Positions 4,081-28,010 of a DNA stretch of 28,110 bases are shown one piece after another. The stretch lies in the UHGV virus genome UHGV-0095852; one strand, 5' to 3'. The notes under the pieces were generated by a model, which had not been told where the DNA came from, searched no databases, and saw only the letters and a program-made list of their open reading frames with translations. The stretch is from a virus. Within the stretch, counting starts at the first letter, position 1; each line of letters begins with the position of its first letter. A program made the position numbers and the translations under genes.

Positions 4081-7000
4081 TTAGGCCGCATCGGCGATTA
4101 TTTTACGCAGTTCATCTACCGAGTAACGAGTAGATACCATCCACGCCGGACGGTCAAAGTTCACATCAGCAACCGGGTTTGCTTCAAAATTCCAGAAACG
4201 CCCGCCAATCTTCTTAATCGCGTCTTTGGCGTTCCGTATTGTCGAGGAACCTGGCTGGTCGGCAATGAGATAAACCGCGCCAACGTCTTCGCTGACGCTC
4301 CACCAGCGCCCGCGAACACGCGCCTTAGCGCGAATCGGCTTATCATTAACCACAATGATATAGTCATCATTCGCCGCTTCATCAGCTCTGGCTTCAGCCA
4401 CTGCCGCCTGCTCTTCTCTTTTGCTTTCAGCCTGCTCAAGCCTTTCCGCGATCTCTGATTCAGTGGCCCCGCCGTTTTTCAGCGATACATAGTCCTGCCA
4501 CGTTGCCGATTTGAGCGCATCCGGCAACTCATTCACATAGTCGCCGTCTTTCAACTCACGGGCGCGACGGGTGGCCATTTCTACCAGGCGATTAACAGAA
4601 ACAGCATCAGCAAAATCGTCCTTACTAATGTGTTTTTCATCAAATGCATTGATGACAGCCCCCACCTTAATCCACTGCGCTGCTGGCGAATCCAGAGGAT
4701 TATCGGCCTGAACAATGGCTAATTTCGCTCCATCGACACCATTATTAGCCAGCTGCTCCAATGCCGACCAGCCATCGGCATCGCTGAGTGATTTATATTG
4801 CTCAAACAATGCATCGCGCCAGGCCACCAGCGCAGCTCGTGTTTTCTCAATTTTCGCCGTAATTTTCGCGGCCTTCACCTGATTAAACATCCGTTCAATG
4901 TCATCAGTGTTGCTAAAGGCTTTCATCCTGCCCTGGAATAAACGGTATGCCACCACGGTCTTCCAGAAAGATTCCAGCCCTTCTCCGGACGGTTTACGGA
5001 ACAGGCTAAGAATATCTTCAGAAGTAACTTTATTAAGTGAGCGACCGGACAAACCACGCCCTGCCATCCAGTTTTCAAACTCCTGGGAAACATCATCCAT
5101 CGTGGCCTGTGACCCCCATGCCTGCATTCCCTGGATGTAATCATATCCATACAATGCCTGGAGGAATCCCTCGCCGTCCACGACATTCAGCGGGTTATCA
5201 CTGGCTTGTATTTTTGCCACTTCACGCTTCAGCGCCTCGTCGTTGCCATCAGGATATATCCATCGCTCAGGTGCTATATCCGATGCTCGCCCGATTTTTT
5301 GGCCTATCACGCCATCATAGGTCGATGACAGCGCGATCTGACCATCATCTGTGCGATAAGCCCAGTATTTAATAGCTGAACCACCGCCCCATACTCTACC
5401 AGGCTTCCCGGCAGTGACATTCATTACCCCATTGCGAATAGCATCATAGAACTGATCGCGCGTAAGTGTTGTTGATAGCTGGTGGCATTGAACACCACGT
5501 GCAGCTGTTTCACGCGATTCTGCAACTCCCTCTTCAAAGGTTACCGATTCAATTATCAGGTTAAAGGGCAAAAATAATGCCGTCCCCGGAGAACGAGAGT
5601 AACGACTAGCCACATCCAGCCAGGATATGCGGCACGTACACCCGCCCCTTTCCGCATCAATGGCGGTAACACGAACAATTGCTGTCGTATTGTGATTCTC
5701 ATCGATGATCGCGCGATAATGGCTGCCCTTGTGCAACAAGATATTTTTCTCAGTGCGTACATACTCCTGTGGGTTCTGCAATACATCGGCATCAAGCTCC
5801 AGAACCCCGGCTTTAATCGCACGTTCCAGATCACCACGAGAACGTTTCATAACGGTGTCAGCGTCTTTAGCTCTGGTGATCGCAAAGCGTAGCTCCCGCA
5901 CACGTTTTCTGTAGTCTCGCAACTGTTCCAGAACATATTTCTGCCCGTTCCTGTTCGTCCCCGCTTTAATCAGGTCGTCAAGATTGCGCTGGTAATGCTC
6001 TACCTGCTCCATCGCGCTTTTCAGTTCTGTCTCCATCATGCCGATATCTTTCCCGGCAGCATTCGCCGCTTTCAGGTAGTTATCGAGAGCATTATTGGCT
6101 TCGCGTAGGGCTTTCAGTTTCAGACGTTCTTCACGCTCTTGCGCCTGACGACTCATGATTGCACGGCGTTCTTCCGGATTTGCCGCCAGCATAATGGCGC
6201 GTTCATCTGCGTCATCCGCATCACCATTGGCGATCTCTGACATGTCTGAGGTCATCACCATATTGATCCAGTCCTTCTTACGTTTCAGCGTATCCAGACG
6301 GAAGTCATCAAATGTGCCTTTGCCACAATAGTAGTGAACATTGACCTTTTCTTGTGGTGAGCCTACCCGAGCGCCGCGCCCATTACGTTGGTCGATACTG
6401 GCAGGAGTCCAGGGTAGTGTCAGATGGTGGATATCGGTTGTACCGATGTGCAAGTTAATACCTACTTCAGCCTTCTTGTTACAGATTATGATGCGCGTGC
6501 GACCTTCGTTATAGTCGGCGGCAATACCTTCCATGCCCTCAAGGCCAGCATCATTTTTAGCTGAGAGATAATCCTCATATTGGGCAAGTTTGCTGTAGTA
6601 GGTTTCCCATGCACCTTCTTTGTATTCACCGTTTTTATTTGGCGTAGGTTCAGTCGGCTTATTCACCTTCTTCAGCTTGACGCCGCCAGCCTGGCTAACT
6701 GTCGTCGCATTGATAATGCCTATCTCCTGCTCCGGCATTTGCAGTGCACTGGCAATAATACGGCGCAGCTTCTGGTGCTGGGCTTTTTCATCAATGAAGA
6801 CGATTTGTTTACCGTTCTTCAGACCTTCACGAAGGTTTTCGATCAGCGCGGCATACTTCGGCGGGATGGGGTGTGATACCTGCTGCATATCAATACCGGC
6901 AGCCGCAATGGCCTTCAGTATTTCAGCTTCCAGTTCAATGCCAGCACGTATTTCAACATGCGACGGATGTTCGCTAAAGGTGGTCTTCACTACCTTGCTG

Positions 7001-10000
7001 GTACGCGTACTGACCAGCCCACCAGCGCCATCTTCTTCGGCCTCGTCTGCATCATCTGCCACTTTACCGCCAGCTACTTTTGGCAGGGCATCAGCAATAG
7101 CTTTTACCTTGTCTGCAAGCTCAACGGGGAACTGGAATGTAATCGCACTGGCATACAGATCAGGATCTATAGCAACCTTATCCATGTCGCGGATGATGGA
7201 GAAGATGAAATCATCCGGTTTTTCGTTTGTGATATGCCCGTTTTCATCGACCGTCAGCGCATCTTTACTACTTAACTCCTGTGCACGCTTACGAAGTTCT
7301 TCGTAAATGGCCTCTTGCTCTCCTGTCATCGGGATCTGCAAGGTATTCTCGACAATATCAGGGATTTTTACCGTCGCCCCGACGTCCGCAGCAGTCTTCA
7401 GAGTAGTCCAGCGATGGAAAATACCACGCAGACCATCCAGGTTCTGGAAGCCCACCAGTCCCTGCTTCTCTTCCACCTCACCGGAAATTTTCTGAACCTG
7501 AACTGTGGCTGTTTTACCGAACACGCGAACGAAATCATCCGGCGTAACAATACCCATGCGCATCCACTCTTCCTGCGGAATGACAGTAGACAGCATGTTG
7601 AAAGCATCAATCGGGCTGTTCACCAGCGGTGTTGCCGTCAGCATAACCACACCACGCCCGTTGTTGCGTTTCATCATGTACGCAGCTTTTACAGCCATGT
7701 CGCGGGCCATTTTGGATACTGCCGGGTTAGGCAAATATGCCAGTTGCCCCGCTTCGCGCCCGGCGCTAAAGGAGTTGCGGTAGTTATGTCCTTCGTCGGC
7801 AATTACGCTATCGAAGTTCATATCCTCAAAGTACGGGATATTCTGCTTCTTCGTTGTACCGGTATTTGCGGCCTGGTCCTTAATCTTGTTCTTCTTCTGC
7901 GCGTCACGGTGTTTGCCAGATGCCAGGTCAAGACGCCCCATTTCCACAGCATTAAAGACCGCTTGCTGTGAGTTTTCCTCAATGGTTTCTTCTCGTAGCG
8001 GGATAGACGCGAATTGCTCTTTTGTCATGATGACCGTTCGCCAATTTGACGACGGGATCATGTTCATGCGCTGAACGATAACGGCGCTGGCGGACTCTTT
8101 CACAACATTTCGGGTAAGAGGCTGCCCGTTACTGTCGAGGCGTGGTTCGCCATTTTCATCAAGCACCGGCGCGGTCAGAATATTTCCGCTGTCATCACGA
8201 ACTTCATCCAGACCGATAAACATCATATTGGCGAAGGCATCAGCACTGTAGAAGCTCTGTGCCTCGTGATACCAGTTCTGATAAACCGCCTTCGGAACAA
8301 CAATACACGTGCGTTTAGTGCGACCTGTTTCGAAGTTATACGCCTCAAGCGCAAGCGCGGTCGTGGTTTTACCCAGCCCGGTACCAAATCCCATGATGCC
8401 GCGCCCATCTTCTGACAAGCGCCGAACTTCTTCATTCTGATAAGTCAGAGGAATGCGCTTCCCACTAATCCCCTCCAGGCCAAGCGGTGCGTCAGAATGC
8501 GTAAACGGGATGAAGCCATTAAATGCGTCGTTATAGTCGCGGGCTATCTGATCAGCCTGCGGGTGAGTGCGTAACCAGTCGTTGAAGCTAATTTCCAGTT
8601 GAGCAATCTTATCCAGGTACTCGTTAGCGTTCTGCCCACGCGGTTTAATGCCGTTCAGGTAGTTTTCTAACTGGTTCAGGAAGCCGTCTTTATTGTTGGC
8701 CTTCTTGAACTCATTCCCGTTTTTGCCGTTTACGGTTCGTAGTTGATAGCCAGTAAATACCCCGTCCTTACCTTCGTAATCGTCCGGAGATACCAGAATG
8801 CCGTCCTCAACCTTAAGGTCGGGTTCTGTATACTTAAACTCGTCATAGCCCTGCTCTGCCAGGAACTCTTTTATCAAGCGGCGATCCAGCCAGCGGGCGT
8901 TCAGATTAACGGTGACTTTATTTAGTGGCGTGAAAATGCGTTTCTCTTCGATTTTCGCCAACTGACGCTCAAAGTTCGCTTTCTGCTCACCTGTTGACGC
9001 ATCACGCCAGCCCACCAGCAATGCTGTTTTGGTTGCAATATCGCCGCTGGTGGCGCGGTCCATCGGCAGCAGGCAGCCATACCCATCAATAGCGATATCA
9101 TCAAATTTCGCCAGGTATTCCAGAGCAGCATCGTCGTCTCCTGGCAGTTCGCCAGCAAACGCCTCACGAAAATCGTCCAGTGTGATTGGATTAAGTGCCA
9201 CGTCACTGAAAAGGTGGGTTACAACTTGTTCCGGGCGTGTAAAGTCAATACCGGCAGCACCATCCGTTACATCAAGTCGTCCAGCAAGGAGGTCAGAAGC
9301 AGAGCCGTCCTGTTTCACGTTGCCAGTGAAAGTCATCCAGTTTTTAGCGCCAGCTTCAGCAATCCCATTCAGCTTAATCGCGTGCGGCGGACCATACTTC
9401 GCAATTTCGGCTTCCGCCAGGCGCGCGGCATCAGCAAGTTCATCATCAACATTTTCCCCCAGATTACGCTTATCAAGCGCCTTGTTGATCAACTGCCCTA
9501 TCAGTGCGCCGCGCATAACGCGTTCTCTGTCTTTTTCTCTCTGCTTGCCAGCAAAGCGAATCATTGCCGCTACTTCATCACTGATAACCGACGGATAGTC
9601 GGACGCGATCGCCGATATCTGGTCCCATGACAACGCCAGAATGCCATTTGTTGACTGAAACGCGATCTGCAGATCACCAAACGTCGTAACACCATATCGA
9701 TTTACATCAAGAGCGGAGGATTTGGTTGTCGCGTCCTTGACCCATTTCAGGCCATCAAACTCATGCCAGATGCCGCCTACAAGGCGTTTATCGCCCACTT
9801 TCGCGCCCTGCCATGCCTGAGTAGTTACGCCAAGCAAATCCCAATTAATGCGGCTTTCAAAGCGGCGCGATAGAGCGGTTTTCATCGACTCATTGGATAC
9901 ACGACCGTCCTTTTTCACCACCAGGGTATTGCGGAAGCTGGTACGCTCCATATCGCCGTAAACAAATCGCTTCCCTTCGGTTGTAAACCATTTCCCTTTG

Positions 10001-12717: not shown

Positions 12718-13046
12718 AGTTACGGCCTCACTAACAGGTTTAACAACCTGCTACCCGCTGTCAAACAGGTGGCAGGACGTGACAGGGTTGACAGACTGGC
12801 GTTAGTGAAACCAGCAGGCCTAAGCCTCCCCATCACGCCCCACCATAATTCGGGCGTAACGCGGTTTACGGACACAAAAATACCGCAATATCGGAAATCT
12901 GCGGTTGTCCGCACTAACATTCAGGCTGTCAAACCTGGTCGCAGAATTTGCTACGACGGCATGAATATAAGCCTGAAAACATGGAAGATCAACTAAAAAT
13001 TTCAGCAATGGATGACTTCAGTCGATGATGCAGATCATACATTCCG

Positions 13047-17783: not shown

Positions 17784-18077
17784 TCAATTCACATCAATGT
17801 CTTGATATGATTCGCCAGTATCGTCTTCGTCGTCAGGATCTCCTTCCACCTCTGGCCACTCAACCTCCCAGCCAACAGTTTCCAGGCTCCGCAGAACAAA
17901 CACCCCATCGGCATGAATGGTATTCACGATCCCCATTGCGGAATTTGTGTTGATAAAGCGTATATCTTGCGCAATATTTTCTTCCGAAATATCGCCTTCA
18001 AATATACGCAATGTGCCGTCATCAGAGCATTCAACAATCCCTCTAATCCCAGCGGGACTCACAATGCTATACTTCAT
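17784..18077 (-). CDS. hypothetical acidic protein, 97 aa, last gene of the operon
   Basis: ATG with AAGGAG RBS at 7 nt; highly acidic C-terminus. Confidence 0.55.
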   Translation of the reverse strand: MKYSIVSPAGIRGIVECSDDGTLRIFEGDISEENIAQDIRFINTNSAMGIVNTIHADGVFVLRSLETVGWEVEWPEVEGDPDDEDDTGESYQDIDVN

Positions 18078-21000
18078 TTTGCAACTCCTTCATACATCCC
18101 AAGAAAAATTCCAGCACGCCGTCATTGTTTAATACAGAGTTAGTCGCCTGCTCCGGATCGGCATACATCTGCAAGGCCATAGAAAAAATCTCAGTCGCCC
18201 TGCAATTGCTTAATGCAGGTGGCTTTGATATAAATCTGCCGCTGACAGAACTTACCGTATTTTCCATATAAATTTTAGACATATATCCATGACTTAGGTC
18301 GGTTCGCACCAAATACTCAGCACTGCCACGGCTACCAATATTATGATAAGAAACTTTACCGTTAGTTTTTGATTTAATGAAGGCTTTGGCCCTCTCCAAT
18401 AGATGGGGATTTGAATGTTCTATATGGTGACCTATTTCATGCCATAATACACGCTCGTGATCACTATTAGCATCAATTGTTATATTCCCATTTCGACTTG
18501 CAAAAGCACGAACATTGTTCTCGTGGTTAATATTTTTTAATGTAGATAAAGTCCCTCCTGAAATAATATAGGCTTTTTCAATCGTCTCGCGAATACTGTA
18601 TGCTTTACGGGAGAAAGTTTCATTATCGTGACCACTTAACTGCTCTGCTTCATCAGAAATAGCAATCCCACGACTCCATTCCTTAGACTGGTCATGTGAC
18701 ACATTTGACGATTCAAGAATCATGTCAAATGCGGCTCTGACTTTTTTATGTACTACATTTTCAAGCGCATTAGGATAGGCTTTTTGTCCACGTGTTAATG
18801 AAGCTATTTCATATAGTTCTGCTTGCAAGTCTTCCGGTATGTCCAGATTAAAAACAAGCATTTTTTTCAGATCATATCCAATCCCATGATCATTCTGGTG
18901 CAAAACCTCAGCAAGGTAGTCAGTGAGTTTTTCCTTATTTGACCTAACGTTATTGATTTGTTCTATAGTAAAGTCAACACGCTCCTTGATTCCGTAATAT
19001 GAGGAATGCTCTGCTAATTCCACTATCTCCTTAAGCCTGACAAGTGTCTCAATATACGCATCAGCGATCTCCTCTGCCGTTAGTTCAGAGCTAACTCCGA
19101 CACTGGCTGTTATTTTCCTACCAGCCGCCATAATATCGTCGATATTATGCAAGCTCTTTTTGAATAACTTCAAAGTATTTTGGATTATGCGCACCATCTC
19201 TTCTGCGCTTCCAGCTTTATTCATTTCCTTTCTAAATCTTAAAGCTGTTTTCTCTGCAATAGACGCTGGAGATTTTAAATAGTTACCTAACCAAACAAGA
19301 CAACCATTGCGCAATTCATCAATGCTAAAGTCATCAGGAATATGTTTTGCTGCATTATGTAAAACACGTATAAATTGTTCAGCGGGCACGCCTTCTTCTG
19401 ATATGTTGCAAAACGTTTCAATATCACAATCAATATTTCTTTCATCTGCGAGCGAAGGAGCTTCATCTCCTTTTTCAATCGCGTCACGCAGTGCGTTAGC
19501 ATAAAAATTGCTGCGTTGATAAGACAATAACATCGTTGTTAACACAGCGTCGCTGTATCCATAACGTTTAGCCCACTCCTTAATCTCATTAACGGTGACA
19601 TTGCGAATATAAAAACCAAGTTCCAAAAATACATTGCGCTTTATTTTTTTTGCGGACTCCTTAATTTTTTCTGACACCTTCACGATTCGGATCAAGTCCT
19701 CCACGCTGGTCGCATCAGCAATTAGCTTTGAAATGTATGGTTCGACATCTCCTGAAACCGATTCAAACATGGCGAAATTAAGCCCTTTACCTTCGCCATA
19801 CTCAGCCTCAATTTCATCAGAAACGGCAGATAAAATGCTACGCAGATCGACATCTCCGCCGCCGAACATATCGCCTAACGCTTGTTGCTGGTGAATAAGT
19901 TCATCGTTAATTTTTTGCGCCAGTTTCTTGAAAGCTGCCCCCATTCGCTTAGCGCTTCGGTTGTTGGCAACAATAAACAGAGCAAGCGCTTCTGCTTCCG
20001 GAGTGCTATCTCCAAACAATCCACGCTGTGCGATCACCTCTTCTACTGCCTGACCGTTATCTTTTGCTTCACGAACAAGGTTAATTGCTTCCTGTAGCGC
20101 GGCAATAGCCTGTTTATCCAGACTATTCAATTGCTCTATACCGTCTACCAGTCCGGTTACCGTGTCATGGTGAACATCACCTGAAAGCGACTGCATTTGC
20201 GCAAAATCGCTGGCTGCCGTATTTAATGCGGTAAGGATGTTACGCATTTCCGGATCTGGCTCTTCCGCCACCAGCCGAACAAGCCTTTCATCCTTGTACG
20301 CTTTGGCAAAAATTGCATTCTGGATGCGGTCGATAAGTTGTTTCGTTGGACGCCCATCGGCAGTAAGCAAACCTGCCGTCGCCGTATCACCTATTTCGCG
20401 CAAAAACGCACGAATAAACGCATCATTGGACCGCGCCAGTAGATTTCCATCATCTGAAGGATTAAATAGCGCCATGACGCTCTCAGTGAGAAATTGCGCA
20501 TCCGCATACGCTTTTTCACTTGCAGCCATCTCTTGCAGATCGCTGATGTTTGAATCGCGGGCAAATTGTGCGCGGTCTACATCTGTGAGTCTTTCTCGCA
20601 CCAGTACGGGCATAGACATTTGTGAAATGTCGTCAGGATTCAGACCAAACTCTTTTGCATGATCGATCAGGTACTGGCGATATTCATCCGCCTGCCCTTG
20701 CTCATAGGCACGCCAGATACCCATGCTCCTTCCGTTGCCGGATTCAACAACGTTGTCCGGACCAACTATCGGCGCTCCGTGGCTGCTCATGCCGGAATCC
20801 GTTAATTGTGCCGGGCGTAAATTGGAGGCAATACGGTTAACCTGGAGTTTGCTGGATAGCCGTGTACGGTCACGTGGCTGGAGTTCTTCCGGGAAGGCCG
20901 GATTAATCGTACCGTCAAGGTTGTTCGAAATGATCAGACTGCTGGCATCAACGACCTTAAAAGCCGTCTTTACCTCTGCCCCTTTACTGGTGACTACGTA

Positions 21001-21108
21001 ACTACTGCGCCCCTGGCGTGTTTCTCGCCTCTCTAATGAAGAAACCAGCTCAATAACACTGTTAATGTCTGCTGCTTCGGATAGCGCGGAAGTAACTGAC
21101 TTGTTCAA
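18067..21108 (-). CDS. DdrB-like large internal head protein (by synteny) with a C-terminal HExxH motif
   Basis: 1013-aa ORF, TTG start with AAGGGGAG RBS; HEIGH encoded at 18427-18441. Confidence 0.75.
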   Translation of the reverse strand: MNKSVTSALSEAADINSVIELVSSLERRETRQGRSSYVVTSKGAEVKTAFKVVDASSLIISNNLDGTINPAFPEELQPRDRTRLSSKLQVNRIASNLRPAQLTDSGMSSHGAPIVGPDNVVESGNGRSMGIWRAYEQGQADEYRQYLIDHAKEFGLNPDDISQMSMPVLVRERLTDVDRAQFARDSNISDLQEMAASEKAYADAQFLTESVMALFNPSDDGNLLARSNDAFIRAFLREIGDTATAGLLTADGRPTKQLIDRIQNAIFAKAYKDERLVRLVAEEPDPEMRNILTALNTAASDFAQMQSLSGDVHHDTVTGLVDGIEQLNSLDKQAIAALQEAINLVREAKDNGQAVEEVIAQRGLFGDSTPEAEALALFIVANNRSAKRMGAAFKKLAQKINDELIHQQQALGDMFGGGDVDLRSILSAVSDEIEAEYGEGKGLNFAMFESVSGDVEPYISKLIADATSVEDLIRIVKVSEKIKESAKKIKRNVFLELGFYIRNVTVNEIKEWAKRYGYSDAVLTTMLLSYQRSNFYANALRDAIEKGDEAPSLADERNIDCDIETFCNISEEGVPAEQFIRVLHNAAKHIPDDFSIDELRNGCLVWLGNYLKSPASIAEKTALRFRKEMNKAGSAEEMVRIIQNTLKLFKKSLHNIDDIMAAGRKITASVGVSSELTAEEIADAYIETLVRLKEIVELAEHSSYYGIKERVDFTIEQINNVRSNKEKLTDYLAEVLHQNDHGIGYDLKKMLVFNLDIPEDLQAELYEIASLTRGQKAYPNALENVVHKKVRAAFDMILESSNVSHDQSKEWSRGIAISDEAEQLSGHDNETFSRKAYSIRETIEKAYIISGGTLSTLKNINHENNVRAFASRNGNITIDANSDHERVLWHEIGHHIEHSNPHLLERAKAFIKSKTNGKVSYHNIGSRGSAEYLVRTDLSHGYMSKIYMENTVSSVSGRFISKPPALSNCRATEIFSMALQMYADPEQATNSVLNNDGVLEFFLGCMKELQNEV

Positions 21109-24120: not shown

Positions 24121-24556
24121 CCCAGTCTCCTTCACGCTTTTCGATCGTAAACTGGCGCTCTATGCAGTCATTGATAGGGAAAATGCGATAAAGCGGATTC
24201 AGTCGACAGTTACCGTTAGTCAATGTGACTTTCAGATCCCACTTCGTTGGTTCAAGATATTTCGTATCGATGAGCAAATACTCTTCTCTCTCACCGCGTT
24301 TTGAGGCGTCAACTGGTCGCGTTTTCCCTGAAATAACCACAGATGGATTTTTCAGGTCTTGCAACCAATATTCGATTTGAGCATTGCTGACCCAGCTTCG
24401 CTTAACACGTAGCGAAACAGGAAATGCTATAGCGGATTCTTTCACTACAGCGTCACCAATACTCAAAATCTCAACACTCTTGCGACGAAAAATGAAACGG
24501 TCAATGATGGCAACAAATGCCATGATAAAAATGAAATAATTTCCAAAGTTACCCAT
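24110..24556 (-). CDS. LydB-like protein (by synteny), N-terminal transmembrane segment
   Basis: Hydrophobic N-terminus YFIFIMAFVAII; overlaps the upstream gene stop. Confidence 0.5.
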   Translation of the reverse strand: MGNFGNYFIFIMAFVAIIDRFIFRRKSVEILSIGDAVVKESAIAFPVSLRVKRSWVSNAQIEYWLQDLKNPSVVISGKTRPVDASKRGEREEYLLIDTKYLEPTKWDLKVTLTNGNCRLNPLYRIFPINDCIERQFTIEKREGDWDVK

Positions 24557-24882
24557 TATTTCTCTCCACCTTTTCCCCCATTCGCTATTACGCTTAAGAG
24601 ATTCAAGACGTTACTAGCTCTGGACTTCAAGCCCTGTAAAATTTCACTACCGTTGTTACTGGCAATCAGAACAACGCAGAAAATGATACCTTCAGGCCAT
24701 TCTTGGCTAACCGCCACCCCATACCCCGCAAGCCCGGCTGTTACCGCAGTAAACAATTCACTCGCAAGATTGAGCAGGGACGCAGAAATGCGCCCGTCTC
24801 TAACTCCGAGAAGGAATACGCCGGTTCCACTTAGTAGGGATGTTATGACTACTACAGCCAGATTTTCATAATCTGCAAACAT
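24556..24882 (-). CDS. holin-like small membrane protein (LydA-like, by synteny)
   Basis: 108 aa with several hydrophobic stretches; GGAGG RBS. Confidence 0.5.
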   Translation of the reverse strand: MFADYENLAVVVITSLLSGTGVFLLGVRDGRISASLLNLASELFTAVTAGLAGYGVAVSQEWPEGIIFCVVLIASNNGSEILQGLKSRASNVLNLLSVIANGGKGGEK

Positions 24883-24985
24883 ACCCCTCCAGAAATAACA
24901 TCTAATGCGCCACTAACTTAGTCAGTTTGTTATTTCCTTACAGGACATCTTCTAGAATCGTATCCTTAGCATACAAGGGAGACAT

Positions 24986-25270
24986 ATGCTTATTGGATAC
25001 ATTCGCATTTCAACAAATGACCAAAACACCGCTTTGCAACGCCCCCCTTGAAAGCGCAGGATGTGAGCTAATTTTTGAGGGCAAAGCGAGTGGCAAAAAG
25101 GCTGAACGCCAAGGGTTAAAAAAGGTTCTGCGTATGTTTTCCAGAGATGAAGCCTTGGTCGTATAGCAGTTAGAGCGGCTTGAGGGCAATTTAGTTGTGC
25201 TGCTGTAATCGCTGCGTGCCAGATGAATAAACCTTCTGAATCCCACTAATTCTATCGACATCTGTACACC
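24986..25270 (+). pseudogene. degenerate serine invertase (Hin/Gin/Cin family) remnant
   Basis: Starts MLIGYIRISTNDQNTALQR then shifts frame at a C-run; a second frame continues with CELIFEGK ... VV; W codon replaced by TAG at 25164-25166; later SIDICTPMQR matches SIDTSTPMGR of the intact invertase. Confidence 0.6.
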
Positions 25271-25418
25271 AATGCAGCGCTCACGATGCAATTAAGATCA
25301 ACATTACAGGGATGGTTTTCATTAGTGGTCGGTCCGACACAAGATGCATCGAATTGATGCGCCGCGCGATAAGTGTATCTATTCCCTCGAGATAAACTAC
25401 ATCGACGCGGCATTTGTA

Positions 25419-25991
25419 TTACAACTCAGTTTGAGTTTGGCGCTTCTCTACAGGGTGATAACGATAAATCGTCGATACACCGATATCGTAAATAATTGCC
25501 AACTGTTTCCTGCTGTAGCCATTTTCGATCAACCTCGCTATTTGCTCATGTTGTTCTTTTGTCAACTTCGGGCGACGTCCGCCAATGCGTCCCTGTTCGC
25601 GTGCAGCTGCCAGTCCAGCCAGGGTTCTCTCAACAATTAATTCACGTTCCATTTCTGCTAAAGCCCCCATGACGTGAAAAAAGAAACGCCCCATGGGTGT
25701 TGAGGTGTCAATGCTGTCTGTCAGACTACGGAAATTAACACCTTTTTCCCGCAGCTCCTCAATAAGCGTGATCAGGTGTTTCATACTTCTGCCAAGCCTG
25801 TCCAGCTTCCAGACAACCAGCGTATCTCCTTCTGATAACGTTCTGAGCAGCTTTTTCAATCCTGGTCTGGCTGACTTTGTTCCGCTGATTTTATCTTCAA
25901 AAATTAGTTCACATCCTGCGCAGTTCAGTGCATTTCTTTGTAAATCTGTGTTTTGGTCATTTGTTGACACACGAATGTAGCCAATTTGCAT
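25419..25991 (-). CDS. serine DNA invertase, Hin/Gin/Cin/Pin/Min family
   Basis: MQIGYIRVSTNDQNTDLQRNAL resolvase N-terminal domain with catalytic Ser, C-terminal HTH; start set at ATG 25991 (GAGG 9 nt upstream) rather than 26000. Confidence 0.92.
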   Translation of the reverse strand: MQIGYIRVSTNDQNTDLQRNALNCAGCELIFEDKISGTKSARPGLKKLLRTLSEGDTLVVWKLDRLGRSMKHLITLIEELREKGVNFRSLTDSIDTSTPMGRFFFHVMGALAEMERELIVERTLAGLAAAREQGRIGGRRPKLTKEQHEQIARLIENGYSRKQLAIIYDIGVSTIYRYHPVEKRQTQTEL

Positions 25992-26045
25992 GAAAAACAT
26001 CCTCTTTGTTTAGTTAAAAATACATAGTTGGTATAGGTAGGGATT

Positions 26046-26071
26046 AAGACTAAAACGTTGGTTTGGGGGAA
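26046..26071 (+). other. 26-bp recombination crossover-type site 1 (minus-strand reading TTCCCCCAAACC AA CGTTTTAGTCTT)
   Basis: Half-site ending in AAACC, 2-bp core, degenerate right half; 55 bp from the invertase start. Confidence 0.55.
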
Positions 26072-26491
26072 GGCTCGGCGCTGCCCGTTGGTGTGCCTGT
26101 TCCGTGGCCCTCAGCCACGCCGCCAACGGGGTGGCTGAAATGTAACGGAGCAGCATTTTCTTCTGAAAAGTACCCAAATCTGGCAAAGGTTTACCCCACT
26201 AATAAATTGCCGGATTTACGGGGAGAATTTATTCGCGGTTGGGATGATGGGCGCGGGATTGATGCGGGACGTACCCTGCTTTCAGGGCAGGATGGTACAA
26301 GTTTTTCTCATTACGGAGGTAATTTCGACATTGGGTCTGGTCATTCAATCAATAACTATGACCAAATTGTTTCTAACCAACCAGGATTTTCCCGTTTTTC
26401 ATTTGCAGGGCCTTCACGAGGTGATGGGGTTAATTATGTAACCATTCGTCCTCGTAACATTGCGTTTAATTATATCGTAAGGGCGGCATGA
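26063..26491 (+). CDS. tail fibre C-terminal variable cassette 1 (promoterless gene segment)
   Basis: Conserved start GEGSALPVGVPVPWPSATPPTGWLKCNG, unique middle, conserved end RPRNIAFNYIVRAA; no ATG or RBS of its own. Confidence 0.7.
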   Translation: MGEGSALPVGVPVPWPSATPPTGWLKCNGAAFSSEKYPNLAKVYPTNKLPDLRGEFIRGWDDGRGIDAGRTLLSGQDGTSFSHYGGNFDIGSGHSINNYDQIVSNQPGFSRFSFAGPSRGDGVNYVTIRPRNIAFNYIVRAA

Positions 26492-26510
26492 AAACGTTGG
26501 TTTAGGGGAA
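26485..26510 (+). other. 26-bp recombination crossover-type site 2 (minus-strand reading TTCCCCTAAACC AA CGTTTTCATGCC)
   Basis: Same structure as site 1, at the junction between cassette 1 and cassette 2. Confidence 0.55.
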
Positions 26511-26930
26511 GGCTCTGCATTGCCCGTTGGTGTACCTGTTCCGTGGCCCTCAGCCACACCGCCAACGGGGTGGCTGAAATGTAACGGAGCAGCATTTTCT
26601 TCTGAAAAATACCCAAATCTGGCAAAGGTTTACCCCACTAATAAATTGCCGGATCTACGGGGCGAATTTATTCGAGGTTGGGATGATGGACGAGGTGTGG
26701 ACAATGGGCGAGCATTATTAAGCAGCCAAGAGGCTACAAACTTTTCTCAGCGTGCCGGAAATATAGGCGATGGTGCGGGGCACGCAATTAATTTTCATGA
26801 TGGCATCGTCGGAAATCAGCCAGGATTTTCACGATTTAATTTCACCAGTAACTCTGTAGGTGATGGTATAAATTTTGTTGCTGTCAGGCCGCGAAATATC
26901 GCATTTAATTACATCGTAAGGGCGGCATAA
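26499..26930 (+). CDS. tail fibre C-terminal variable cassette 2 (promoterless gene segment)
   Basis: Frame open from the crossover site (GRHENVGLGEGSALPVG ...); same conserved ends as cassette 1, different central part. Confidence 0.7.
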   Translation, partial: GLGEGSALPVGVPVPWPSATPPTGWLKCNGAAFSSEKYPNLAKVYPTNKLPDLRGEFIRGWDDGRGVDNGRALLSSQEATNFSQRAGNIGDGAGHAINFHDGIVGNQPGFSRFNFTSNSVGDGINFVAVRPRNIAFNYIVRAA

Positions 26931-26949
26931 AAACGTTGGTTTAGGAGAA
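26924..26949 (+). other. 26-bp recombination crossover-type site 3 (minus-strand reading TTCTCCTAAACC AA CGTTTTTATGCC)
   Basis: Same structure as sites 1 and 2, at the junction between cassette 2 and cassette 3. Confidence 0.55.
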
Positions 26950-27399
26950 GGCTCGGCGCTGCCCGTTGGTGTACCTGTTCCATGGCCCTCAGCCACACCT
27001 CCAACGGGGTGGCTGAAATGCAATGGTGCAGCATTTTCTTCTGAAAAGTACCCAAATCTGGCAAAGGTTTATCCCACCAATAAATTACCGGATTTACGCG
27101 GTGAGTTTATCCGTGGTTGGGATGATGGGCGAGGTGTGGATGCGGGAAGGGTCATCTTAAGCATACAGGGGTGGTTAACAGGAAGTCATTATCATAATAT
27201 TCGGTCATGGGACGCGTGGGATAACACGGTATTGGTGCCAAATGACAGAGGGGGGGATAGTCTGTTGTCGACAGATAACGCCGTCCAAGAAGGAGCGATT
27301 AATGGTAAATTTACCAGTCAATACAGAACGGAGTTATCTGGGGGGAATGAAACCCGCCCACGTAACATTGCCTTCAATTATATTGTGAGAGCAGCATAA
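26938..27399 (+). CDS. tail fibre C-terminal variable cassette 3 (promoterless gene segment), followed by a tail fibre assembly gene
   Basis: Frame open from site 3 through the stop at 27399; the ORF track shows only the part after the first GTG (27136). Confidence 0.7.
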   Translation, partial: GLGEGSALPVGVPVPWPSATPPTGWLKCNGAAFSSEKYPNLAKVYPTNKLPDLRGEFIRGWDDGRGVDAGRVILSIQGWLTGSHYHNIRSWDAWDNTVLVPNDRGGDSLLSTDNAVQEGAINGKFTSQYRTELSGGNETRPRNIAFNYIVRAA

Positions 27400-28010
27400 T
27401 GGATAATGCGATATTAAATAGCGAACTTATAGCCATACAGGCAGGAAACATTATCGTTTATAACTATGATGGTGGTAATCGGGAATATATTTCTGCATCA
27501 ACTGAATATCTTGCTGTTGGCGTTGGTATTCCGGCAAATTCTTGTTTGGATGCTCCAGGCTCACATAAAGCAGGTTATGCGATTCTCCGTTCAGAGGATT
27601 TAAGTTCATGGGAGTATGTGCCAGATCATCGTGGCGAAACTGTCTATAGCATTGACACTGGGAATCCCGAAGAAATCACGGTGTTGGGTGACTATCCGGA
27701 AAATACAACCACTATCGCCCCGCTAACACCATACGACAAATGGGATGGAGAGAAATGGGTGGTTGATACTGAGGCTCAACATAGTGCAGCTGTAGATGCA
27801 GCAGAAACAAAACGTCAGTCATTGATTGATACTGCGATGGATTCCATTAGTCTGATTCAGTTGAAATTACGGGCTGGACGGAAGTTGACGCAGGCAGAAA
27901 CCACGCAGCTTAACTCCGTGCTAGATTATATAGACGAGCTGAACGCGATGGATTTAACCACGGCACCAGATCTCAACTGGCCTGAAAAACAACTTTCTAC
28001 AGCCAGTTGA
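27399..28010 (+). CDS. tail fibre assembly protein (chaperone)
   Basis: Start overlaps the cassette 3 stop (TAATG); C-terminal TTAPDLNWPEK matches the conserved tail fibre assembly C-terminal motif. Confidence 0.8.
   Translation: MDNAILNSELIAIQAGNIIVYNYDGGNREYISASTEYLAVGVGIPANSCLDAPGSHKAGYAILRSEDLSSWEYVPDHRGETVYSIDTGNPEEITVLGDYPENTTTIAPLTPYDKWDGEKWVVDTEAQHSAAVDAAETKRQSLIDTAMDSISLIQLKLRAGRKLTQAETTQLNSVLDYIDELNAMDLTTAPDLNWPEKQLSTAS

Follow-up and report, generated by a model that had tools for sequence, protein, structure and literature searches.

A probable ψcin remnant beside a Min-type inversion module in a D6-like phage-plasmid

Plasmid p15B, which was sequenced in about 1990-92, provides the closest described counterpart of the locus considered here, and its truncated invertase gene was reportedly described as ψcin by Sandmeier, Iida and Arber in 1992. 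In p15B (Escherichia coli 15T-, GenBank X62121), a 5' fragment of a cin-type DNA invertase gene lies beside the lysis genes and is convergent with an intact Min invertase, which serves a multi-cassette tail-fibre inversion region. A note in the P1 RefSeq record states that p15B nt 7147-7408 match the cin promoter and the first 173 nt of the gene (cin -90..+173) at 89% with one gap, and that p15B nt 6463-6533 match the cin enhancer at 83% with no gaps. The P1-like plasmid p1506-2 returns the same figures (89.35% with one gap, and 83.1% with no gaps for a second match that lies in its convergent min gene), along with the same 614-bp spacing. Thus, p15B also has a convergent ψcin that faces min.

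In P1 and D6 themselves, cin is an intact gene of 186 aa that ends in the crossover site cixL. A 2019 survey of P1-like plasmids treated cin and the C segment as a "region of difference" with partial invertase ORFs and Min-type substitutions, and included a truncated cin in pSvP1 and pTZ20_1P as well as a reversed Min-like invertase in pJIE250-3 (PMC6906374). The region in pSvP1 and pTZ20_1P is marked by IS-mediated insertions, deletions or rearrangements (PMC6906374), whereas the locus described below shows a clean replacement of one module by another.

The window, by which we mean the whole analysed stretch of 28,110 nucleotides (UHGV virus genome UHGV-0095852), derives from a D6-like, P1-related phage-plasmid of E. 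coli. The genes neighbouring the cin-type fragment, or stump, form a P1-type lysis and anti-restriction set as in D6, comprising the holin gene (lydA), lydB, hdf, darA and ddrA. E. coli plasmid pMTY1586_untypable1 (NZ_CP135715.1) matches the region at 100% identity, and 13 listed plasmid records, each covering at least 80% of a 1601-nt query, are 98.6-99.0% identical; these relatives are about a dozen plasmids of 90-93 kb, from E. coli plus one Salmonella. Two further observations concern other parts of the window. At the position of ddrB, a 1013-aa ORF (18067-21108, minus strand) contains the motif WHEIGHHIEH, a zincin-like HExxH sequence, and the D6 ddrB-like gene at that position is far shorter, at 1365 bp. 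Additionally, Rfam finds a C4 antisense RNA at 12765-12850 (68 bits) and an a1/b1 target element at 12918-12970 (54 bits), both on the minus strand, which together point to a P1-type immI immunity region. The features of the invertase locus are collected in Table 1.

Table 1. Positions, in the window, of the features of the cin stump, the Min-type module and their surroundings.
Feature	Position	Strand	Basis or remark
Holin gene	24556-24882	-	adjoins the intergenic region of the stump
Intergenic region between holin gene and stump, homologous to the D6 cin upstream region	24883-24985		92% identity to D6
Shine-Dalgarno-like GGGAGA, retained, 5' of ATG 24986-24988	24977-24982	+	sequence
ψcin, decayed 5' part of D6/P1-type cin (cin nt 1 to ~307 of 561)	24986-25281	+	identity, codon-position spread, Pfam, PGAP
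Homologue of the annotated P1 cin recombinational enhancer (cin nt 19-90)	25004-25073	+	P1 RefSeq feature 31678-31749
Fis-core-like 15-mers in the stump	25008-25022 and 25054-25068	+	heuristic scan
C6 run at 2-bp deletion (frameshift)	25042-25047	+	alignment with D6 and P1 cin
TAG in place of cin Trp61 (Trp also in intact neighbour)	25164-25166	+	alignment
Decayed 3' end of Min-type tail-fibre cassette	25272-25354	-	blastn E=1e-11 to cassette end in relative L004; local alignments to the three cassettes of the window
3' flank of Min module, common to P1/p15B-type plasmids	25299-25418	-	alignment of 25299-26100
Intact Min-type serine DNA invertase, 190 aa	25419-25991	-	Pfam Resolvase and HTH_7; upstream ATG at 26000 possible
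Enhancer homologue inside intact invertase gene (gene nt 19-90)	25902-25973	-	82% identity to P1 enhancer segment; cores 48 bp apart
Mix-type 26-bp crossover sites	26046-26071 (+), 26485-26510, 26924-26949	same orientation	pattern scan

The original prediction had described a degenerate second invertase gene lying tail to tail with the intact one, and the details it gave of this gene are present in the DNA: the ATG with its ribosome-binding sequence (GGGAGA, for which D6 has GGGGGGA at the equivalent position), the frameshift in a run of C, the continuation in a second frame, the TAG in place of Trp, and the later SIDICTPMQR, found at ~25245-25276. From the ATG, the first frame reads MLIGYIRISTNDQNTALQR and ends at a TGA (25049-25051), which yields an ORF of only 21 aa. 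Relative to the cin genes of D6 and P1, the frameshift is a 2-bp deletion of cin nt 57-58, beyond which the cin frame resumes in the second frame as CELIFEGK...LVV and continues up to the TAG. Owing to the intact ribosome-binding sequence and start codon, the 21-aa peptide could be made. In one IMG/VR contig (L016) the run is C5, so that the deletion is in frame and the ORF reaches the TAG at codon 61; this difference in the run reflects either homopolymer length variation or a sequencing error. Further lesions had been overlooked, namely a 9-bp deletion near 25188 and two additional in-frame stops, one of them a TAA at 25206-25208 in the aligned frame, for three in-frame stops altogether. Everything past cin nt ~307 is gone, and homology to cin, which had been noted to fade before 25419, stops at 25281. 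The stump and the intact invertase are indeed convergent, with 137 bp between them.

A working serine DNA invertase of the Hin/Gin/Cin/Pin/Min group would be expected to have an uninterrupted ORF of ~185-195 aa, which the stump does not have. Its translation matches the Pfam Resolvase family (E=2.6e-16) after correction of the frame, over profile positions 2-111 of 145, and retains the motif YIRISTNDQ with its Ser. This match is limited to the N-terminal domain; Pfam returned no HTH_7 match in the stump, whereas the intact neighbour matches both Resolvase and HTH_7. At the nucleotide level, blastn gives E=5e-74 against P1 cin, and E=9e-174 against D6 when the flank is included. The similarity goes far beyond a chance match.

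The stump shares 81.8% identity with cin of D6 and 78.8% with that of P1 over cin nt 1-307, and over its first 180 nt these values rise to 89% and 84%. Its position and orientation are those of cin in both elements, where the gene likewise adjoins the holin gene, and its upstream region and enhancer segment are homologous to theirs. The comparison with related genomes proposed along with the prediction finds the gene intact at the equivalent position in D6 (orf31), pTB423 and pSX48-3, followed by cixL and S'-type tail-fibre segments; the stump lacks nt ~308-561 and cixL, and has frameshifts and stops instead. The suggestion that the fragment is a relic of an ancestral invertase gene is upheld by this identity and position. 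Differences between the stump and D6 cin are spread over codon positions 1/2/3 as 15/13/17, as compared with 1/0/19 between the intact genes of D6 and P1, a pattern indicative of a pseudogene under neutral decay. Identity to D6 also falls along the locus: it is 100% over 24400-24882 and 92% in the intergenic region, and within the stump the first 90-nt block matches at 91%, the second at 87% and the remainder at 68-75%. Such a gradient is consistent with an old scar in which recombination with the backbone has partly renewed the 5' side, and the alleles of ψcin show a visible mosaic of D6-type and P1-type backbones.

The intact gene encodes a protein that differs by one residue from UniRef entry Q05517_ECOLX ("DNA-invertase"), and its best solved relative is a "DNA-invertase" (4m6f/3uj3) that we take to be Mu Gin. 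The 5' end of the gene faces the first of three mix-type sites, which are spaced 439 bp apart and each head a promoterless C-terminal tail-fibre cassette with a Collar domain. The invertase, sites and cassettes make up a multi-cassette inversion region of the Min type. Further on lie a tail-fibre assembly gene (27399-28010) and an inverted cassette end (from 28015), such that the window closes inside the invertible region.

As in p15B, the stump is flanked by the holin/lyd lysis genes on one side and, on the other, by an intact Min-type invertase that is convergent with it. From 25299 rightwards, the window also shares the Min module with the p15B type, as judged from p1506-2, which is 94.5% identical over window 25299-26100 (L007 2692-3492). 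Despite this shared arrangement, the two differ in several respects. The backbone of the window is D6-like rather than P1-like and its stump is of the D6 type in sequence; the stump measures ~307 nt, as opposed to ~182 nt in the p15B type (the cut in p1506-2 being at ~nt 182), and its lesions are different, with the 2-bp deletion in the window and a TAG at codon 9 in the p15B type. The window also keeps ~25 more nt of a decayed cassette end at the junction. Because p15B has the same arrangement, the stump is ordinary. The arrangement is already known from that plasmid, and pseudogene status is already flagged in current RefSeq records, as in NZ_CP195333.1 (99.5% identical), where PGAP labels the stump [quoted passage not shown].

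The boundaries of the replaced segment can be placed on both sides. The 137 bp that separate the stump from the stop codon of the intact gene are part of the incoming module, and the decayed cassette end at its edge reads …HPCNVDLNCIVSAA, to be compared with RPRNIAFNYIVRAA. The junction of ψcin with this cassette end falls within the ambiguous 10-mer ATGCAGCGCT (25272-25281), which is derivable from either partner. In the complete relative pKOr024_2, homology to D6 ends at the equivalent of window position 25281 and resumes, at 97.4%, in the constant part of gene S, with ~7.1 kb in place of the ~5.0 kb that hold the 3' part of cin, the C segment and part of S. The cassette remnant is shorter in P1/p15B-type plasmids, which suggests one ancestral junction that was trimmed later. 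Recombination at a quasi-site was also considered for the junction of ψcin and cassette, and was set aside as not supportable, the likeness to the right half of mix amounting merely to TGGTnTA.

Stumps of this kind recur. Among 5426 complete E. coli genomes, 160 contain a junction of the p15B type and 17 one of the window type. A survey of IMG/VR anchored on cin nt 1-21 gathered 66 contigs, 28 with an intact cin of 186 aa, ~36 with a truncated or disrupted gene and two too short for classification. The junctions in these contigs are of at least eight types, at cin nt ~35, 52, 53, 182, 225, 250, 265 and 296. Besides the two Min types, two more stump types face a convergent intact invertase: one with a ~35-nt stump (L023, with L025 and L026), whose invertase has 84% amino acid identity to the Min-type protein, and one with a ~250-nt stump (L055 and L070), whose invertase has 57%. 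Since the stumps face different kinds of invertase, the cin locus has been overwritten several times by different inversion modules, and it is a hot spot of host-range module exchange in which the length of the stump looks incidental. In all eight truncation types (L007-L009, L013-L078) the cut falls short of cin nt ~300 (of 561), with none in the 3' half, an outcome with a chance of ~0.5% if junctions were uniform. This could reflect ascertainment, or else selection against fragments that contain the whole catalytic domain and the dimerisation helix.

It is therefore very probable that the stump is a non-functional ψcin, the remnant of the ancestral cin of a D6-like, P1-related phage-plasmid, left behind by module replacement; from homology, synteny, lesions, replacement boundaries and recurrence we infer both its lack of function and the following order of events. 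The ancestor would have had the D6/P1 layout of holin gene, cin, cixL, an invertible C segment (S', U', U, Sv) and the constant part of S. Recombination would then have exchanged all the DNA between cin nt ~307 and a site within S for a Min-type module, which brought an oppositely oriented invertase of the Gin/Pin/Min group with its own enhancer, together with an array of C-terminal tail-fibre cassettes and the mix crossover sites between them. The orphaned 5' part of cin would subsequently have decayed neutrally and would have no role in inversion, which would now depend on the intact Min-type invertase, the enhancer inside its gene and the mix sites.

A residual cis role for the stump is nevertheless possible, as both Fis-core-like 15-mers are kept and the block at cin nt 71-85 is invariant. 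From this invariant block, and from the lack of any junction past cin nt ~300 in the eight types, it could be argued that short 5' fragments of cin are tolerated or kept for a function in cis, be it as an auxiliary Fis-binding site or enhancer or through convergent transcription, and that longer ones are removed because they poison the incoming invertase. We regard this combined reading as unlikely.

The more specific proposal, that the stump has been retained because it gives Min-mediated inversion a second, Fis-dependent recombinational enhancer, was raised in the original prediction, where the fragment was held to be a possible supplier of an enhancer. It has some appeal, for the enhancers of Hin, Gin and Cin are cis-acting elements that work from a distance and irrespective of orientation, and the stump spans the homologue of the P1 enhancer. 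Using a simple scan for 15-bp cores, a heuristic of our own, Fis-like cores were located at positions centred on cin nt 30 and 78 in P1 cin, D6 cin and the intact Min-type gene, in each case 48 bp apart. Both cores of the stump are nearly intact, with changes at 2/15 and 0/15 positions, but they are 46 bp apart, the 2-bp deletion falling between them, and so depart from the 47-48 bp expected of an enhancer. In hin, the two Fis sites are 47 bp apart and function depends on their helical phasing, and the native distance from hix to the enhancer is 99 bp (PMC3798978). Better conservation of the enhancer segment than of stump nt 91-180 was tested for and not seen, in either the window type (8/72 differences against 11/90) or the p15B type (10/72 against 12/90). 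The 15-mer at nt 71-85 shows no change in any stump long enough to include it, but is taken here as a hint and not counted as evidence, because the lineages are mosaic and the test was post hoc. Meanwhile, an enhancer homologue is present within the intact invertase gene itself; its distance to the first crossover site, measured to the centre of that site, is ~85-155 bp and hence close to the 99 bp of Hin. Stumps of ~35, 52 and 53 nt are without the enhancer, one of them (L023) next to an intact invertase, and in the JS316/129130 type a stump persists although no invertase gene is annotated or detected in the 2.5-4 kb examined downstream. Collectively, these comparisons argue against the stump as a supplier of an enhancer, and we consider its retention for this purpose quite improbable.

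The region upstream of the stump bears on another alternative, in which the retained cin promoter and start would drive transcription into the 3' end of the convergent intact invertase gene and dampen its expression, through antisense RNA or transcriptional interference. Both the upstream region of cin and the ribosome-binding sequence are kept, just 137 bp separate the two genes, and a search for a terminator-like site on the plus strand between them found none. A consensus scan for a sigma-70-like promoter in 24883-24985, however, found none either, and the upstream sequence of the stump differs between P1-type and D6-type elements that have the Min module in common. A wider scan of 24883-25420 for promoters and terminators likewise gave nothing convincing, and an Rfam search found no RNA family in the stump region. 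Such interference thus seems very improbable. A partial match to a gix-type half-site, which had been reported in the same upstream region, does not hold up: merely 8 nt match (TCCTGTAA, 24938-24945, minus strand), and this 8-mer occurs three times in the window as against 0.63 expected, with at least three matches in 2 of 100 shuffles. The opposite half-site beside it, ATAACAAACTGA, bears no resemblance, and a 26-bp dyad of two 12-bp half-sites around a 2-bp core was not found; a scan of the window with the mix-site pattern, allowing up to three mismatches, matched only at 26053, 26492 and 26931, which are the three true sites. The "gix half-site" is a chance 8-mer. It aligns over the predicted -35 hexamer of P1cin in P1. 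The minus-strand sequence AAGTTAGTG at 24908-24925, which precedes the holin start (24882), is similar to AAGTTACTT, the -22 box of LPdar, a late promoter of P1, and may be the late promoter of the lysis/dar operon. If so, it would explain why the intergenic region beside the stump has been retained.

The prediction had also allowed for an origin by duplication or inversion, and this part of it is not sustained. Had the intact invertase gene been duplicated in inverted orientation, or been split by an inversion, this could account for the 54-nt inverted repeat, 83% complementary, formed by the 5' ends of the stump and the intact gene, but this stretch is conserved among all the invertase genes aligned. 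The proposed nucleotide alignment with the intact gene was run and yields an identity of 60.9%, lower than the identity of the stump to cin of either D6 or P1. Since the stump has both this higher identity to D6/P1 cin and the synteny of cin, it represents the ancestral cin and not a duplicate of its neighbour, which came with the replacement module; inverted duplication is ruled out by the identity comparison, and descent from the neighbour in any form is extremely improbable.

Least tenable is the notion that the frameshift is a homopolymer sequencing error in a gene that is really intact, for although the C-run varies (C5 or C6) in one metagenomic contig, the three in-frame stops, the 9-bp deletion and the lost 3' half are all independent of that run and recur in agreement across the many plasmid assemblies listed above, which rules out an artefact and leaves this reading with practically no probability.

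With the stump most probably a non-functional ψcin, it matters little for the mechanism of inversion and serves instead as a scar by which a module exchange may be dated and mapped. For annotation, the 21-aa and 79-aa ORFs at the stump should not be called genes. Its use is as an evolutionary marker of the repeated overwriting of the cin/C-segment locus in P1- and D6-like phage-plasmids, in which the different stump lengths left by each event allow both these events and later recombination of the backbone to be traced.
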